Below, in pieces: positions 37,065 through 47,846 of a stretch of 64,000 nt of DNA (its first letter is position 1; every line of letters begins with the position of its first letter). A program made the position numbers and the translations under genes. Below the pieces are notes generated by a model, which saw only the letters and a list, made by a program, of their open reading frames with translations, was not told the origin of the DNA and made no database searches. This DNA comes from Escherichia coli. Lineage in GTDB: Bacteria > Pseudomonadota > Gammaproteobacteria > Enterobacterales > Enterobacteriaceae. The stretch is from NCBI RefSeq assembly GCF_003334315.1, contig NZ_QOWR01000011.1; one strand, written 5' to 3'.

Positions 37065-37359
37065 CTCTAGATCTCTTTTTTGCCTGCAAGCCCGGGTAAT
37101 GCGCCCACAAGTTCTGCTTAATCGATTGAAAAAACATCTTTTTTTTAAAGATGTGTTCGATGCTGTGTACCAGTGCTCACAGATGTCTACTTTTTCGCGA
37201 AAACGTAGATCTCTACCGCCCAACGAAAAGCATGAAAGCGATCACGAATCCCATTGGGTCGTCATGTTCTGTCGATCGCATCTTCCTATCCTCGCTCCAG
37301 GCCTGCCGCATAACCAATCAGGCTTCCTACTTACAGAATTGAGAAAAGAGGATGTGGAA

Positions 37360-40680
<3,321 letters not shown>

Positions 40681-40846: not shown

Positions 40847-42562
40847 ATGAATTCGTTACAAATCTTGAGTTTTGTCGGTTTTACGCTGCTGGTGGCGGTG
40901 ATCACCTGGTGGAAGGTCCGCAAAACAGATACCGGATCGCAACAAGGCTATTTTCTTGCCGGACGTTCACTAAAAGCGCCGGTTATTGCCGCTTCGTTAA
41001 TGCTAACCAACCTTTCCACGGAACAACTGGTCGGCCTTTCCGGGCAGGCCTACAAAAGCGGCATGTCGGTGATGGGCTGGGAAGTGACTTCAGCGGTGAC
41101 GCTGATCTTCCTCGCGCTAATCTTTTTACCGCGCTATCTGAAGCGCGGCATTGCCACCATCCCCGATTTTCTGGAGGAACGTTATGATAAAACGACGCGT
41201 ATTATCATCGACTTCTGCTTCCTAATTGCCACCGGCGTCTGCTTTCTGCCGATTGTTCTCTACTCCGGCGCGTTGGCGCTCAACAGCCTGTTTCACGTCG
41301 GGGAATCGCTACAGATTTCTCACGGTGCGGCTATCTGGCTACTGGTAATTTTGCTTGGTCTGGCGGGAATTTTGTATGCGGTGATCGGCGGACTGCGCGC
41401 AATGGCAGTGGCGGACTCCATCAACGGTATTGGGCTGGTTATCGGCGGGTTGATGGTGCCGGTATTTGGCCTGATCGCGATGGGCAAGGGCAGCTTTATG
41501 CAGGGCATTGAGCAACTCACCACCGTTCACGCCGAGAAATTAAACTCAATCGGTGGCCCGACCGTTCCCTTGCCGATTGGCGCGGCATTTACCGGTTTGA
41601 TTCTGGTGAACACCTTTTACTGGTGTACAAATCAGGGCATCGTGCAACGCACGCTGGCGTCAAAAAGCCTGGCGGAAGGGCAAAAGGGGGCGCTGTTAAC
41701 GGCGGTGCTGAAAATGCTCGACCCGCTGGTACTGGTGCTGCCAGGGTTGATTGCGTTTCATCTGTATCAGGATTTACCGAAAGCCGACATGGCCTACCCG
41801 ACGCTGGTCAATAACGTTCTGCCAGTGCCAATGGTGGGTTTCTTCGGCGCGGTGTTATTTGGTGCGGTGATCAGTACCTTCAACGGCTTTCTGAATAGCG
41901 CCAGTACGTTATTCAGTATGGGTATTTACCGTCGCATCATTAACCAGAATGCCGAGCCGCAGCAGCTGGTCACCGTCGGGCGCAAATTTGGTTTCTTTAT
42001 CGCTATCGTTTCGGTGCTGGTCGCGCCGTGGATCGCCAACGCGCCGCAGGGGCTGTATAGCTGGATGAAACAGCTCAACGGCATTTACAACGTGCCGCTG
42101 GTTACCATCATCATTATGGGCTTTTTCTTCCCGCGCATCCCGGCGCTGGCGGCAAAAGTAGCGATGGGGATTGGCATAATCAGCTACATCACCATCAACT
42201 ACCTGGTGAAGTTCGACTTCCATTTCCTCTATGTGCTGGCCTGTACGTTCTGCATCAACGTGGTCGTGATGCTGGTGATCGGTTTTATCAAACCGCGCGC
42301 CACGCCGTTCACCTTCAAAGATGCGTTTGCGGTGGACATGAAACCGTGGAAAAACGTCAAGATCGCGTCAATTGGCATCCTGTTCGCGATGATTGGCGTC
42401 TATGCCGGGCTGGCTGAATTCGGCGGCTACGGTACGCGCTGGTTAGCGATGATCAGTTATTTCATTGCCGCCGTAGTGATTGTCTACCTGATTTTTGACA
42501 GCTGGCGGCATCGTCACGACCCAGCCGTAACCTTTACTCCCGACGGGAAGGATAGCCTATGA
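40847..42562 (+). CDS. yidK: sodium:solute symporter (SSS family) transporter
   Basis: 571-aa polytopic ORF; SSS family signature; start of yidJ overlaps its stop. Confidence 0.85.
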   Translation: MNSLQILSFVGFTLLVAVITWWKVRKTDTGSQQGYFLAGRSLKAPVIAASLMLTNLSTEQLVGLSGQAYKSGMSVMGWEVTSAVTLIFLALIFLPRYLKRGIATIPDFLEERYDKTTRIIIDFCFLIATGVCFLPIVLYSGALALNSLFHVGESLQISHGAAIWLLVILLGLAGILYAVIGGLRAMAVADSINGIGLVIGGLMVPVFGLIAMGKGSFMQGIEQLTTVHAEKLNSIGGPTVPLPIGAAFTGLILVNTFYWCTNQGIVQRTLASKSLAEGQKGALLTAVLKMLDPLVLVLPGLIAFHLYQDLPKADMAYPTLVNNVLPVPMVGFFGAVLFGAVISTFNGFLNSASTLFSMGIYRRIINQNAEPQQLVTVGRKFGFFIAIVSVLVAPWIANAPQGLYSWMKQLNGIYNVPLVTIIIMGFFFPRIPALAAKVAMGIGIISYITINYLVKFDFHFLYVLACTFCINVVVMLVIGFIKPRATPFTFKDAFAVDMKPWKNVKIASIGILFAMIGVYAGLAEFGGYGTRWLAMISYFIAAVVIVYLIFDSWRHRHDPAVTFTPDGKDSL

Positions 42563-44052
42563 AACGCCCCAATTTTCTGTTCGTCATGACCGATACCCAG
42601 GCCACCAATATGGTCGGTTGCTATAGCGGTAAACCGCTGAATACGCAAAATATTGATAGTCTGGCGGCGGAAGGTATTCGCTTTAATTCCGCCTACACCT
42701 GTTCACCGGTTTGTACGCCTGCACGGGCCGGACTATTTACCGGTATCTACGCTAACCAGTCCGGCCCGTGGACCAACAACGTCGCGCCAGGCAAAAACAT
42801 CTCCACTATGGGGCGCTACTTTAAGGATGCCGGCTATCACACCTGTTACATCGGCAAATGGCATCTCGACGGTCATGACTATTTCGGCACTGGCGAGTGT
42901 CCGCCGGAGTGGGACGCTGATTACTGGTTCGATGGGGCGAACTATCTTAGCGAACTGACGGAAAAAGAGATTAGCCTGTGGCGCAATGGCCTAAACAGCG
43001 TCGAAGATTTACAGGCGAACCATATCGACGAAACCTTCACCTGGGCGCATCGTATCAGCAATCGGGCGGTGGATTTTCTGCAACAGCCTGCGCGCGCAGA
43101 CGAGCCTTTCCTGATGGTGGTTTCGTATGATGAGCCGCATCACCCGTTCACCTGTCCGGTGGAGTATTTAGAGAAATACGCTGATTTTTACTACGAGCTG
43201 GGCGAGAAAGCACAGGATGACCTGGCTAACAAACCGGAACATCACCGCTTATGGGCGCAGGCGATGCCATCGCCAGTCGGTGATGACGGGCTTTATCACC
43301 ATCCGCTCTATTTTGCCTGTAATGACTTTGTTGATGACCAAATCGGACGGGTCATCAATGCCTTAACGCCAGAGCAACGTGAAAATACGTGGGTTATTTA
43401 TACCTCCGATCACGGCGAAATGATGGGCGCACATAAGCTGATCAGTAAAGGGGCGGCGATGTATGACGACATCACCCGCATTCCGCTGATCATCCGTTCG
43501 CCGCAAGGGGAGCGGCGACAGGTCGATACGCCAGTCAGTCATATCGATTTACTGCCGACAATGATGGCGCTGGCAGATATTGAAAAACCAGAGATTCTGC
43601 CGGGGGAAAATATCCTTGCCGTGAAAGAGCCACGCGGCGTGATGGTGGAATTTAACCGCTACGAGATTGAGCATGACAGCTTTGGCGGTTTTATTCCGGT
43701 GCGTTGCTGGGTGACGGATGACTTTAAACTGGTACTCAACCTCTTCACCAGTGATGAACTTTACGATCGCCGTAATGACCCAAATGAAATGCATAACCTG
43801 ATCGATGATATCCGTTTTGCAGACGTTCGCAGCAAAATGCATGACGCCTTATTGGATTACATGGACAAAATTCGCGATCCGTTCCGCAGTTACCAATGGA
43901 GTCTGCGTCCGTGGCGTAAAGATGCACGGCCGCGCTGGATGGGGGCGTTTCGTCCACGTCCACAAGATGGCTATTCGCCAGTTGTACGCGACTATGACAC
44001 CGGCCTACCGACACAAGGGGTGAAGGTGGAGGAGAAAAAACAGAAGTTCTGA
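42559..44052 (+). CDS. yidJ: sulfatase (Cys-type, formylglycine-dependent family)
   Basis: 497-aa ORF; sulfatase active-site motif CSPVCTPARAGLFTG near the N-terminus. Confidence 0.88.
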   Translation: MKRPNFLFVMTDTQATNMVGCYSGKPLNTQNIDSLAAEGIRFNSAYTCSPVCTPARAGLFTGIYANQSGPWTNNVAPGKNISTMGRYFKDAGYHTCYIGKWHLDGHDYFGTGECPPEWDADYWFDGANYLSELTEKEISLWRNGLNSVEDLQANHIDETFTWAHRISNRAVDFLQQPARADEPFLMVVSYDEPHHPFTCPVEYLEKYADFYYELGEKAQDDLANKPEHHRLWAQAMPSPVGDDGLYHHPLYFACNDFVDDQIGRVINALTPEQRENTWVIYTSDHGEMMGAHKLISKGAAMYDDITRIPLIIRSPQGERRQVDTPVSHIDLLPTMMALADIEKPEILPGENILAVKEPRGVMVEFNRYEIEHDSFGGFIPVRCWVTDDFKLVLNLFTSDELYDRRNDPNEMHNLIDDIRFADVRSKMHDALLDYMDKIRDPFRSYQWSLRPWRKDARPRWMGAFRPRPQDGYSPVVRDYDTGLPTQGVKVEEKKQKF

Positions 44053-44098
44053 CGATAATGTCCGCTGATGATCACCCGGCGGGCATTATTCAGGCTGC

Positions 44099-44548
44099 TT
44101 AAACCAGTGAACCGCCGGTCAGGAAGGAAAAGATAAGGAATATCAGCAAAATGCTGCACACGATGCCGATACCAAAAAGCAAGGTATGGAAAGCCAGCGT
44201 CCCGCCGCCAAAAACCAGCGCGCCGCGAATGCCCCAGCGATTTTCCTTACGCATACCGCCAATAAATGCGCAAAGTAGCGCAGCAATGGCCAGTGCGATA
44301 CCGCTTTGATTGAGGATTTTATCGACATCTACGTCCTCTTTTTTCTCCACGGTGGTAATTTTTTCGCCTTTTATTCCGGCGAGAAGACCTCTTTTAATTT
44401 CAGCCGTTTTGTCCGCCACGATGCTTTCAAACGTTGGCGGTGGTGCGGAGAAAGGGCCGAATGAAAAGTGGATAATCCCCATCATTAAAGCGATGGCACC
44501 GAACAGCATGCCCAATGAACTGATTTTATTTTGAGCTATGATACCCAT
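44099..44548 (-). CDS. yidI: inner membrane protein YidI
   Basis: ORF track trimmed to MGIIAQNKISSLGMLFGAIALMMG (149 aa), with AGGAGG-like RBS upstream. Confidence 0.7.
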   Translation of the reverse strand: MGIIAQNKISSLGMLFGAIALMMGIIHFSFGPFSAPPPTFESIVADKTAEIKRGLLAGIKGEKITTVEKKEDVDVDKILNQSGIALAIAALLCAFIGGMRKENRWGIRGALVFGGGTLAFHTLLFGIGIVCSILLIFLIFSFLTGGSLV

Positions 44549-44655
44549 CTGACCTCCTTGTAGCGGATGGCAAAAGCATATCAGGAAACGGGCGGACGAA
44601 ATTCTTAAAAAAACCGCTAAAGGTAGAGCGTTAGTGAAATTGCAAAGGAGCAACA

Positions 44656-45003
44656 ATGAAAATTTCCCGCCTCGGAGAAGCGCCTGATTACCGCTTCTCG
44701 CTGGCTAATGAGCGTACTTTTCTGGCGTGGATCCGTACTGCACTAGGATTTCTGGCGGCGGGGGTTGGGCTTGATCAACTTGCGCCAGATTTCGCCACGC
44801 CCGTCATTCGCGAACTGCTGGCGTTGTTGTTGTGTCTGTTTTCCGGCGGGTTAGCGATGTATGGCTACTTGCGCTGGTTACGCAATGAAAAAGCGATGCG
44901 TCTGAAAGAGGACCTGCCCTACACCAACAGCTTATTAATCATTAGCTTAATATTGATGGTCGTGGCGGTGATCGTTATGGGACTGGTGTTGTATGCCGGA
45001 TAG
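44656..45003 (+). CDS. yidH: DUF202-family inner membrane protein
   Basis: 115-aa ORF with two predicted TM helices; overlaps yidG start. Confidence 0.7.
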   Translation: MKISRLGEAPDYRFSLANERTFLAWIRTALGFLAAGVGLDQLAPDFATPVIRELLALLLCLFSGGLAMYGYLRWLRNEKAMRLKEDLPYTNSLLIISLILMVVAVIVMGLVLYAG

Positions 45004-45355
45004 CCGCAAAGCCAGACGCATTGCCGACCCAGGACTGCAGCCGGAGCGCACATCACTGGCGTGGTTTCGTACCATGCTGGGCTACGGCGCGTTGATGGCG
45101 TTGGCTATCAAACACAACTGGCACCAGGCGGGCATGTTATTCTGGATTTCGATTGGCATTCTCGCCATCGTGGCGCTGATCCTCTGGCACTACACCCGTA
45201 ATCGCAATTTAATGGATGTCACGAATAGCGATTTTTCCCAATTTCACGTAGTCCGTGACAAATTTTTGATCTCCCTCGCGGTGTTATCTCTCGCAATACT
45301 GTTTGCTGTAACGCATATACATCAACTTATCGTATTTATTGAGAGAGTCGCATGA
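44993..45355 (+). CDS. yidG: inner membrane protein YidG
   Basis: 120-aa ORF, overlapping yidH and yidF. Confidence 0.7.
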   Translation: MPDSRKARRIADPGLQPERTSLAWFRTMLGYGALMALAIKHNWHQAGMLFWISIGILAIVALILWHYTRNRNLMDVTNSDFSQFHVVRDKFLISLAVLSLAILFAVTHIHQLIVFIERVA

Positions 45356-45849
45356 CAGGAAGTCAGGTCATTGATGCTGAAGAGGACAGGCATAAACTGG
45401 TTGTAGAGTACAAGGATGCTCTGCAACCTGCCGATTTTTATCACAATTTCAAACAGCGGGGCATCCGCTCCGTACAGCTCATTCCCTATCTTGAATTTGA
45501 TGACCGGGGCGATCTGACGGCCGCTTCGGTGACAGCAGAGCTGTGGGGGAAATTTTTAATTGCCCTGTTCGAGTGTTGGGTGCGGGCAGATATCAGTCGT
45601 ATCTCGATTGAGCTTTTTGACGCCACCTTACAAAAATGGTGTGGCAGCGAAAACCCGCAACCGCGCTGTGACTGCCAGGCGTGCGACTGGCATCGCCTGT
45701 GCCCGCACGCTCGGCAGGAGACGCCAGACAGCGTGCTTTGTGCGGGCTATCAGGCGTTTTATTCTTACTCCGCACCGCATATGCGGGTGATGCGTGATCT
45801 GATAAAGCAGCATCGTTCTCCCATGGAGCTGATGACGATGCTGCGGTGA
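45352..45849 (+). CDS. yidF: short anaerobic sulfatase-maturase-like protein lacking a radical-SAM core
   Basis: 165-aa ORF; region FLIALFECWVRADISRISIELFDATL and Cys cluster CDCQACDWHRLCPH resemble the C-terminal domain of AslB-type maturases; no CxxxCxxC motif present. Confidence 0.7.
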   Translation: MTGSQVIDAEEDRHKLVVEYKDALQPADFYHNFKQRGIRSVQLIPYLEFDDRGDLTAASVTAELWGKFLIALFECWVRADISRISIELFDATLQKWCGSENPQPRCDCQACDWHRLCPHARQETPDSVLCAGYQAFYSYSAPHMRVMRDLIKQHRSPMELMTMLR

Positions 45850-45856
45850 CGTGCGC

Positions 45857-47041
45857 TTAAACGGGCTGCCCCTGATGCGACATCCGCGTCGCCAGCGGCA
45901 GCCAGCACAGCACGATCAACAATCCCATTAAGGTCATCAACAACCCCAGGCTGCCCTGACCGGTTTGCGGCAACATCGCAGAGAGCGACGCCAGCACGCC
46001 GGAACCAATGTTTTGCAGACCGCCGACCAGCGCGCCAGCCGTGCCCGCCAGGAAGGGGAACGGCTCCATCGCGCCGCTGGTCGCCAGCGGAAACAGCATC
46101 CCGGCACCGAAAAAGAACAGCGCGGCGGGAACGAGCAGCGTCCAGACATTCATCACGCCAAACCAGTCGGGGATCCACATCAGCAAGCCAGCCAGCAGGC
46201 AGCAGATAACCGACTGCCACATTAACGTGGAGAAGCGTTTATTGGGACGTCCGGCAAACCATGCGCCAAAAAACGCTGCCGGAATCGGCAGAATAAACAA
46301 AATACTGACCGTCATACTGCTCAGCCCTAACACCGCGCCCATCAGCACGCCGGAGCAGGCTTCAAAGGCGGCAATCCCGGCCAGACCGCCAATCAGCATC
46401 AGCAAATAACAGTTAAAACCGCTGTTACCGAAAAGCGTTTTATAACTGGTAAGCAGGCGCGTGCGCGGTGCATCGACCGGACGCGTTTCCGGCATCCAGC
46501 GGGCCATACTGAAGGTCACACCAGCACAAAGAACCAACAAAAAGAGATAACAGGCGCGCCAGTTCCACATCGTATCCAGCAGACCGCCGATTAGCGGTGC
46601 GAGCAACGGACTGACGAGAATCCCCATGTTTAACAGGCTGTTAGCATGGCGCAACTGTGTCCGTTCATATAAATCTCGCGGTAAAGTACGCGCCATTACG
46701 CCGCCAACGCCGGTGCCCATCCCCTGCATCGCGCTGGCGGCAATCAACACCGTCAAACTGGAGGTCGTGACCGCGACCAGCGTTGCCAGCATAAAAATGG
46801 ACATTCCGACGAGGATCACCGGTCGGCGGCCCACGCGGTCGGAAATCGGGCCATAAAACAGCTGTGAGACACCGTAAGTCAGCAGATAAGCGCCCATTAC
46901 GCTCTGCACCGCCCCTTCACGGACGTTGAGATCGCGCGCCATATCGGCAATAGCTGGAATATAAATGGTTTGCGCCATCTGACCGACGGCCACGAGTAAT
47001 ACCAACATCAATAACAAATTGACGTTTCTTTGCCTTTTCAT
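45857..47041 (-). CDS. emrD: MFS multidrug efflux transporter EmrD
   Basis: ORF track trimmed to MKRQRNVNLLLMLVLLVAVGQMAQ (394 aa). Confidence 0.9.
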   Translation of the reverse strand: MKRQRNVNLLLMLVLLVAVGQMAQTIYIPAIADMARDLNVREGAVQSVMGAYLLTYGVSQLFYGPISDRVGRRPVILVGMSIFMLATLVAVTTSSLTVLIAASAMQGMGTGVGGVMARTLPRDLYERTQLRHANSLLNMGILVSPLLAPLIGGLLDTMWNWRACYLFLLVLCAGVTFSMARWMPETRPVDAPRTRLLTSYKTLFGNSGFNCYLLMLIGGLAGIAAFEACSGVLMGAVLGLSSMTVSILFILPIPAAFFGAWFAGRPNKRFSTLMWQSVICCLLAGLLMWIPDWFGVMNVWTLLVPAALFFFGAGMLFPLATSGAMEPFPFLAGTAGALVGGLQNIGSGVLASLSAMLPQTGQGSLGLLMTLMGLLIVLCWLPLATRMSHQGQPV

Positions 47042-47662: not shown

Positions 47663-47770
47663 TAATATTTGGACAAAACGCAAACTGTGATCGATACTCA
47701 ACTATGCACTAAATACGTCAAAATTCGTGCCGAAATTGCGCGTTCTGCGCGGAACACGTATACTTTCAGT

Positions 47771-47846
47771 GTTGACATAATACAGTGTGCTTTGCGGTTA
47801 CCAGCCGCAGGCGACTGACGAAACCTCGCTCCGGCGGGGTTTTTTG
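47771..47846 (+). ncRNA. istR: IstR-1 antitoxin small RNA (about 75 nt); the longer IstR-2 probably starts about 65 nt upstream
   Basis: TATACT -10 element just upstream; the 5' end carries the 21-nt repeat complementary to the tisAB leader; ends at a GC-rich hairpin plus GGGGTTTTTT. Confidence 0.55.

Follow-up and report, generated by a model that had tools for sequence, protein, structure and literature searches.

The yidF gene of Escherichia coli lies in the yid sulfatase locus of a 64-kb K-12-type chromosome segment (contig NZ_QOWR01000011.1, assembly GCF_003334315.1), which we refer to as the window, meaning the whole stretch of DNA that was analyzed. Its 165-aa product can bind neither S-adenosylmethionine (SAM) nor the radical-SAM cluster, has no auxiliary cluster I (Aux I), and is therefore not a sulfatase maturase. 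The gene is nonetheless under purifying selection at the protein level, rather than a neutrally decaying pseudogene. On balance, we favor the reading that YidF is a catalytically dead relic of an anaerobic sulfatase-maturing enzyme (anSME) surviving as a small protein coupled to YidG, probably with one putative [4Fe-4S] cluster, and with a role that does not require the sulfatase YidJ. The shortness of E. coli yidF is already visible in any database; our literature search returned no mention of full-length orthologues in the same slot, of ligand-precise excision, of its recurrence, or of continued selection.

Maturase parts lost and kept in YidF

YidF matched TIGR03942, the anaerobic sulfatase maturase equivalog profile, in two stretches (E 5e-21), scoring 75.1 bits against a cut-off of 349.45. 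Against the sequence of anSMEcpe (PDB 4K36), residues 27-95 aligned with 175-246 and residues 105-152 with 314-370, and tblastn connected YidF with full-length orthologues in syntenic positions (E 2e-36). AlphaFold2, run on an alignment of 56 sequences, gave a compact model (predicted local distance difference test [pLDDT] 81.7, predicted template-modeling score [pTM] 0.80), and the best Foldseek matches of this model in the PDB were the anSMEcpe structures 4K36-39 (E 6e-6, template-modeling [TM] score 0.61). A sequence-only reading of the locus had called yidF, three genes downstream of yidJ, maturase-like, and profile, 4K36 alignment, tblastn, and predicted fold all agree with this; 1.3 kb separate the sulfatase gene with its CTPAR signature from yidF. 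That reading had also noted the missing radical-SAM motif, and indeed no CxxxCxxC was found in YidF, whose cysteines lie at positions 75, 97, 106, 108, 111, 117, and 130. A Pfam search of the protein returned neither Radical_SAM (PF04055) nor SPASM (PF13186), the sole match being TolB_like at E 1.8.

The missing part was not detected elsewhere in the window. Seven full-length maturases searched by tblastn against the whole 64 kb (word size 2, E up to 10) matched only yidF, covering full-length residues ~126/158 to 370, and gave nothing for residues 1-125 in any frame (E > 0.1); no complete radical-SAM open reading frame (ORF) was thus recoverable upstream of yidF in this genome. The lone CxxxCxxC in the six frames of 44600-45900 was set aside as a chance occurrence, being out of frame inside yidH and closed by a stop. 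The view of YidF as similar to the C-terminal auxiliary-cluster domain alone had to be abandoned, because some 90 residues of the 165, namely 11-100, match the final third of the radical-SAM barrel (positions 160-245 of the 363-position model). Half of the auxiliary (SPASM) domain is missing as well: the Aux I cysteines are lost, and those of auxiliary cluster II (Aux II) are kept.

Aligned with the enzyme of Citrobacter youngae ATCC 29220 (48% identity over 165 shared residues), E. coli YidF equals the full-length protein minus three in-frame pieces of 142, 59, and 4 aa, with the start codon preserved. Deletion 1 (residues 10-151) takes out the radical-SAM cluster ligands C15/C19/C22, deletion 2 (residues 242-300) the Aux I cysteines C246/C252/C267, and deletion 3 (residues 319-322, HGDC) the Aux I cysteine C322. 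All of the Aux II cysteines are kept, C309/C312/C318/C335 of the full-length enzyme being C108/C111/C117/C130 in E. coli. Cysteines were assigned to the two clusters by spacing against the ligand lists of anSMEcpe, namely Cys255/261/276/330 for Aux I and Cys317/320/326/348 for Aux II (PMC5715301). As read from the alignment, the maturase core is lost through in-frame internal deletion. YidF cannot perform radical-SAM chemistry and therefore cannot turn Cys52 of YidJ into formylglycine. The gene and its parts are as follows.

45352-45849, + strand: yidF, 165-aa remnant of the anaerobic sulfatase maturase of this locus (profile, tblastn, alignment, fold prediction)
45378-45379, + strand: deletion 1 junction, full-length residues 10-151 gone (142 aa; alignment with C. 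youngae ATCC 29220 YidF)
45382-45648, + strand: final third of the radical-SAM barrel, kept as YidF residues ~11-99, anSME model positions ~160-245, pLDDT 86-96
45648-45649, + strand: deletion 2 junction, full-length residues 242-300 gone (59 aa; C. youngae alignment)
45673-45741, + strand: retained Aux II cysteine motif, C108-x2-C111-x5-C117 ... C130
45702/45703, + strand: third gap (4 aa, HGDC), fourth Aux I ligand gone (C. youngae alignment)
45742-45846, + strand: C-terminal helices, residues 131-165, ending ...PHMRVMRDLIKQHRSPMELMTMLR, the best-conserved part of YidF (invariant alignment columns, low dN/dS)

Full-length orthologues and selection on the short form

A search of 5.8 billion proteins for YidF relatives recovered short forms (164-178 aa) from E. 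albertii and E. marmotae at 82-85% identity and from Citrobacter, Klebsiella, Leclercia, and Superficieibacter at 42-52%; a few longer relatives with SPASM also turned up. Only anSME relatives or fragments were found among 1.84 billion representative proteins (407 matches at E <=1e-3, 12 at E <=1e-30). A few other truncated anSME forms occurred in unrelated lineages and may be ordinary fragments.

Scanning GTDB representatives, one genome per species, gave 77 loci, and the 62 enterobacterial ones were analyzed. All 62 have yidH and yidG immediately before yidF. In 30, yidF encodes 350-381 aa, with CNLxCRYC at residues 15-22 in all but L043 (360 aa, motif broken). These full-length forms, the complete enzymes among them measuring 369-381 aa, occur in Citrobacter werkmanii, C. 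braakii, C. sedlakii, C. youngae ATCC 29220, and Leclercia sp. 29361, as well as in Kluyvera, Kosakonia, Trabulsiella, Atlantibacter, and Pluralibacter. Such syntenic orthologues score 464-479 bits against TIGR03942, above the cut-off of 349, carry both Radical_SAM and SPASM in Pfam (C. youngae against PF04055, E 1e-18), and begin, as in E. coli, at an ATG overlapping yidG (MTGC...). The gene order in L003 is araC, transporter of the solute:sodium symporter (SSS) family, sulfatase 87% identical to YidJ, two DUF202 genes, and maturase; read through, this maturase is 374 aa long, starts with MTGCHVMAKPASSRCNLRCRYCFY at an ATG overlapping the yidG stop, and so shares its start site with E. coli YidF (MTGSQV). 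The apparent split of the L003 gene was ruled out as a real frameshift, since it was caused by 'nn' in the metagenome-assembled genome (MAG).

The remaining 32 of the 62 loci have a reduced yidF, mostly of 160-186 aa and including four intermediates of 192-249 aa, in Escherichia, the Citrobacter freundii complex, Salmonella enterica arizonae and diarizonae, Superficieibacter, Klebsiella, Raoultella, Silvania, Leclercia adecarboxylata, and Kluyvera sichuanensis. Because yidH and yidG stand upstream of complete maturases, they predate the truncation and replaced nothing. Of the proposal that the N-terminal half of the maturase is absent or replaced by these two genes, absence is thus upheld by tblastn across the window, and replacement is contradicted by the 30 loci in which yidH and yidG precede a full-length anSME.

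In a neighbor-joining (NJ) tree on 162 shared YidF columns, the short forms of Leclercia, Silvania, and P0106 fell inside the clade of full-length forms, where they joined that of Leclercia sp. 29361 (bootstrap 74), and all of these share a 5-aa lineage-specific gap. The short forms of Escherichia, Citrobacter, and Salmonella were placed elsewhere. Edges of the N-terminal deletion are nested within the Leclercia/Silvania clade and differ between clades. Judged from these sequences, the reduction of YidF arose at least twice independently. Intermediate forms were also recovered: P0243 and P0248 (~311-315 aa) keep the barrel without the CX3CX2C cysteines or the Aux I segment, the form in C. amalonaticus ku-bf3 keeps the CX3CX2C string and little other core, and that of Pluralibacter is 249 aa long. 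L025 and L046, like P0243 and P0248, are listed as combining the SPASM deletion and a broken motif with a retained barrel. We infer that inactivation came first and that the dead core was trimmed later.

Selection was measured as the ratio of nonsynonymous to synonymous divergence (dN/dS), calculated pairwise by the Nei-Gojobori method (NG86) within clades of like deletions. For short yidF, dN/dS was 0.16 in Escherichia, 0.18-0.22 in Citrobacter, 0.10 in Salmonella, 0.22 in Superficieibacter, 0.28 in Klebsiella/Raoultella, and 0.31 in Silvania/Leclercia; full-length yidF gave 0.09-0.11 on the same columns. Between E. coli and other Escherichia species, values ranged from 0.12 to 0.30 (Fisher p 5e-19 to 7e-5), and the synonymous excess against four other Escherichia lineages reached p ~1e-17 to 5e-19. 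The reading frame is itself informative: in yidF, 4.0% of point substitutions would lead to a stop, so that at 0.29 neutral substitutions per site at least 5.8 stops would be expected per lineage. The probability of seeing none is ~0.003 per lineage, and the ORF is open in ~30 lineages, with intact ORFs of 160-186 aa in seven genera (Escherichia, Citrobacter, Salmonella [arizonae/diarizonae], Superficieibacter, Klebsiella, Raoultella, and Silvania).

Constraint was strongest in the C-terminal 35 residues, where dN/dS was 0.06-0.09 with dS of 0.5-0.7 (Escherichia 0.06, dS 0.52); the normal dS indicates that the constraint is on the protein and not on the DNA. A DNA element as the cause of this tail conservation, either a terminator shared with emrD or an antisense gene, was accordingly rejected, since dS is normal and conservation is equal in Citrobacter, where emrD is not adjacent. 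Upstream of the tail, C108, C111, and C130 are each present in 32/32 short forms and C117 in 28/32, within a segment that is otherwise the fastest-evolving of YidF.

Readings of the remnant and the maturation of YidJ

Under the reading we favor, yidF is the orthologue of a genuine anaerobic sulfatase maturase from an ancestral yidH-yidG-yidF operon, which yidL-yidK-yidJ often preceded. On the line to Escherichia, three in-frame losses removed the SAM-binding core with CX3CX2C and all Aux I ligands, leaving the original start codon, the last barrel third, the four Aux II cysteines, and the C-terminal helices. The product would persist as a compact protein of small size, its translation coupled to that of YidG, probably still holding one predicted [4Fe-4S] cluster at the Aux II site. 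Its role would be independent of YidJ, which, being strongly constrained, would be matured in trans.

Several observations weigh against this reading. The gene is wholly absent, with yidH and yidG kept, in Enterobacter kobei and one Salmonella enterica genome, several frameshifted yidF clusters occurred among the protein-search matches, and truncated ORFs were found in the E. albertii type strain (95 aa, L021 4259-4546) and Leclercia adecarboxylata NCTC13032 (63 aa, L063 6968-7159). The dN/dS values are NG86 estimates with partly saturated dS, pairwise instead of tree-based likelihood, and C117 is replaced in one Citrobacter clade. The alignment behind the AlphaFold2 model included full-length relatives, and residues 101-107 and 121-125, in the cysteine region, are of low confidence. 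Hints of expression are limited to an interaction of yidF mRNA with GcvB in RNA interaction by ligation and sequencing (RIL-seq; PMC9299463) and one table entry on overexpression. Finally, constraint is roughly two times weaker on short yidF than on the full-length enzyme; together with the long branches of the short forms in the NJ tree, this fits the loss of an enzymatic function and the retention of a lesser one. With regard to the two truncated ORFs, other members of the E. albertii and Leclercia species or clade have an intact yidF, and decay or sequencing error may account for them.

A further possibility, which we put forward tentatively, is that the short YidF is a stand-alone single-cluster Fe-S protein (Aux II half-SPASM plus barrel fragment), repeatedly carved from the maturase and working with YidH and YidG outside sulfatase maturation, or alternatively part of a third Cys-type maturation route. 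The leads toward the former are weak and concern tolerance or export of D-amino acids. A table entry lists overexpression of YidF as increasing D-serine resistance (PMC12363166), and YidH and YidG were recovered in a screen for D-alanine exporters, in which YidH then had no transport effect (PMC10299036). A dsdA-like PALP gene lies directly downstream of yidF or yidG in Citrobacter (L004/L005 8544-12389), E. kobei (L084 4708-6027), and C. koseri (L086 5823-8426), followed in Citrobacter and C. koseri by a GntP permease gene and accompanied in Citrobacter by a LysR regulator gene. These dsdA/dsdX/dsdC-like neighbors and the D-serine and D-alanine hints may be coincidence or a functional thread.

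It is doubtful that yidF is a dead pseudogene fragment, open by chance and without selected function, in a decaying sulfatase island. Such a fragment would explain the lack of any catalytic element, the genus-specific deletion edges and graded size series, and the losses and broken variants just described. It would also explain why yidF outpaces all of its neighbors, with ~50% aa identity between E. coli and Citrobacter compared with 83-97% for YidG and YidH. However, every deletion is in frame with the start codon intact, dN/dS in Escherichia is 0.12-0.30 with Fisher p down to 5e-19, and the tail combines a ratio of 0.06 with ordinary dS, as expected of protein-level constraint. Moreover, the stops expected of a neutral frame are unseen in 30-odd lineages, and three cysteines are invariant in all 32 short forms.

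We consider it unlikely that the remnant still serves YidJ by non-radical means, as an Fe-S electron-transfer or docking subunit for AslB or YdeM or as part of a 'third' route. In anSMEcpe, the retained Aux II cluster has been proposed to conduct electrons to the surface of the protein (PMC5715301), and YidJ is still constrained in lineages with short YidF. Against this, yidJ is lacking at the locus for 20 of the 28 scorable short forms (among them those of the Citrobacter freundii complex, Klebsiella, Raoultella, and Silvania), and these short forms remain under purifying selection. The substrate-binding and catalytic-base regions of 4K38/4K39, which we take to lie in the deleted parts of YidF, count against it as well. 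A Cys-type route in E. coli is reportedly independent of aslB and ydeM, which favors a part in such a route: the title of Benjdia et al. 2007, as cited in later work, reports a third Cys-type sulfatase maturation system in E. coli aslB and ydeM mutants. Least credible of all is a split or rebuilt maturase whose N-terminal half is replaced or functionally supplied by YidH and YidG, since, despite the contiguity of yidH, yidG, and yidF, their overlapping junctions, and their constant co-occurrence, YidH and YidG are three-helix DUF202 membrane proteins that resemble no part of a maturase, contain no CxxxCxxC, and are older than the truncation.

The sulfatase itself does not appear to be degenerating. 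YidJ carries a single sulfatase signature, C52-T-P-A-R, which is invariant (residues 52-56) in 13 orthologues, and matched arylsulfatase and choline-sulfatase models at E 1e-59 to 1e-64, below their equivalog cut-offs; PF00884 is recorded on an orthologue with 87% identity. Its identification as a Cys-type sulfatase therefore holds. The N-terminus (MKRPNFLFVMTD...) shows no obvious signal peptide. In lineages with short YidF, dN/dS of yidJ was 0.046 (Escherichia) and 0.043 (Superficieibacter), compared with 0.034-0.058 in lineages with full-length YidF. Because the sulfatase is not relaxed where its cognate maturase has been gutted, maturation in trans is favored, and YidJ is probably matured in this way. 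The sequence-only reading had offered a non-functional sulfatase or one matured in trans; the conservation of YidJ argues against the former, and equal constraint with an invariant CTPAR argues for the latter. In individual strains, yidJ is annotated as two overlapping coding sequences in ST131 (NZ_CP103710.1, L001 5458-6952), suggesting a frameshift, and is the site of an IS1 insertion in RM9513.

Candidates for this maturation would be the paralogous maturases AslB and YdeM, or else the E. coli system that has been reported to act on Cys-type sulfatases. AslB and YdeM are reportedly full-length anSME homologues encoded beside the aslA and ydeN sulfatase genes, outside the window. Conversion of the cysteine in Cys-type sulfatases has been reported for E. 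coli (PMC6315715, citing Benjdia et al. 2007).

The yidLKJ genes are present in 19/29 full-length loci compared with 8/28 short-form loci (Fisher p 0.008, a value that ignores phylogeny), and yidHGF is a stable unit that persists without yidLKJ in many genera. Six loci (L039, L040, L059, L064, L066, and L069, from five Kosakonia species and one MAG) have a full-length, apparently intact maturase without yidJ, yidK, or yidL, so the maturase must there serve a sulfatase encoded elsewhere or another substrate.

Locus layout and comparison with known systems

Upstream of yidF, the locus comprises the following genes.

39787-40680, - strand: yidL, AraC-family regulator, divergent from yidK (ORF list, AraC-family profile matches, RefSeq annotation)
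40847-42562, + strand: yidK, solute:sodium symporter (SSS), stop overlapping the yidJ start (NF007790, 853 bits against a cut-off of 401)
42559-44052, + strand: yidJ, Cys-type S1 sulfatase, 497 aa, probably cytoplasmic, C52-T-P-A-R at ~42712-42726
44099-44548, - strand: yidI, small membrane-protein gene between yidJ and yidH, on the opposite strand
44656-45003, + strand: yidH, DUF202 membrane protein, 115 aa, 11-nt overlap with yidG (PF02656 on orthologues)
44993-45355, + strand: yidG, second DUF202 membrane protein, 120 aa, stop overlapping the yidF start (ATGA)

A GAGAG purine run precedes the ATGA overlap of yidG and yidF, which is the usual layout for translational coupling, and emrD is convergent with yidF at the 3' end of the locus. 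A consensus promoter scan of 43900-46100 returned no sigma-70-like site and just weak terminator-like hairpins, and is uninformative about the operon. The yidHGF-emrD arrangement was found in 5421/5426 complete E. coli genomes and yidJ in 5132/5426. The yidI gene is missing from most related loci and from ST131, and its segment is missing in ~1700 of 5421 E. coli genomes.

The PF02656 assignment of YidH and YidG is precomputed on their orthologues and on identical or near-identical proteins, NCBIfam having no model for either. Only enteric proteins occurred among the best 120 of more than 7700 matches to YidH. YidH is extremely conserved (dN/dS 0.004-0.06, 83-99% aa identity between genera), and yidH-yidG, which looks like the real core of the locus, was present in all enterobacterial loci seen, whether yidF and yidJ were there or not.

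The combination of an AraC regulator, an SSS transporter, and a cytoplasmic sulfatase makes the earlier idea of a sulfated-sugar island plausible, although yidHGF occurs without yidLKJ in many genera. Upstream of yidL, the glv region for a phosphotransferase system (PTS) and 6-phospho-alpha-glucosidase (37099-39790) is degraded: its GH4-like frame is broken into 38976-39614 and 39578-39790, which RefSeq flags as frameshifted, and in the related genomes L006 and L084 the glv position holds an unbroken pair of PTS EIICB and GH4 genes. On the other side, the sole match of an Rfam scan was istR, outside the yid locus, an Hfq-binding antitoxin RNA (RF01400, 150 bits) at 47716-47845 between emrD and ilvB; RefSeq annotates the tisB toxin and ysdE small ORFs nearby.

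For annotation, the sequence of YidF means that it can be neither a radical-SAM protein nor the YidJ maturase, and work on sulfatase maturation in E. coli should not count yidF as a maturase. Older annotation treats YidF as the YidJ-maturing enzyme. The product name 'radical SAM protein' given by PGAP/RefSeq in thousands of genomes is a propagated misannotation, the 165-aa protein having no radical-SAM domain. The unchanged constraint on YidJ sharpens the question of which system matures it, which ties to the 'third' maturation system. Three in-frame excisions by which all ligands of two Fe-S clusters are gone and all of a third are kept, repeated in separate lineages, with the product still under selection, amount to a natural experiment, and suggest that, within SPASM enzymes, the module made up of Aux II and the C-terminus is able to stand alone and be of use. 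Since yidH-yidG(-yidF) forms the conserved unit and yidLKJ is accessory to it, attention shifts to the strongly conserved DUF202 pair.

Among known systems, YidF is closest to the anSMEs (AtsB, AslB, ChuR, and anSMEcpe; TIGR03942, PDB 4K36-4K39), to which it aligns at ~160-245 and ~314-370. It keeps the Aux II ligands (CX2CX5C...C) and C-terminal helices, sits in a sulfatase locus, and has syntenic orthologues that are full members of the family. It differs in having no radical-SAM core, CX3CX2C, or Aux I ligands, in its length (165 compared with ~370 aa), and in its score (75 compared with 349 bits). Failing by motif, Radical_SAM domain, complete SPASM, and equivalog score, it is not to be filed as an anSME. 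AslB and YdeM belong to the same enzyme family and show the same pairing of sulfatase and maturase in E. coli, but are reportedly full-length, YidF alone being reduced to a remnant.

Twitch-domain radical-SAM enzymes resemble YidF in that their SPASM domain is naturally reduced to one auxiliary-cluster site. However, Twitch domains keep the Aux I half, lack CX2CX5CX3C, and are fused to an active radical-SAM core (PMC5715301), whereas YidF is the mirror image, with only the Aux II half (CX2CX5C...C) and no core. Like pseudoenzymes, YidF has lost catalytic residues and cofactor sites, keeps fold elements, and is under purifying selection. Typical pseudoenzymes, however, keep the whole fold with point substitutions, whereas in YidF more than half of the protein has been excised in frame, and repeatedly so in related lineages.

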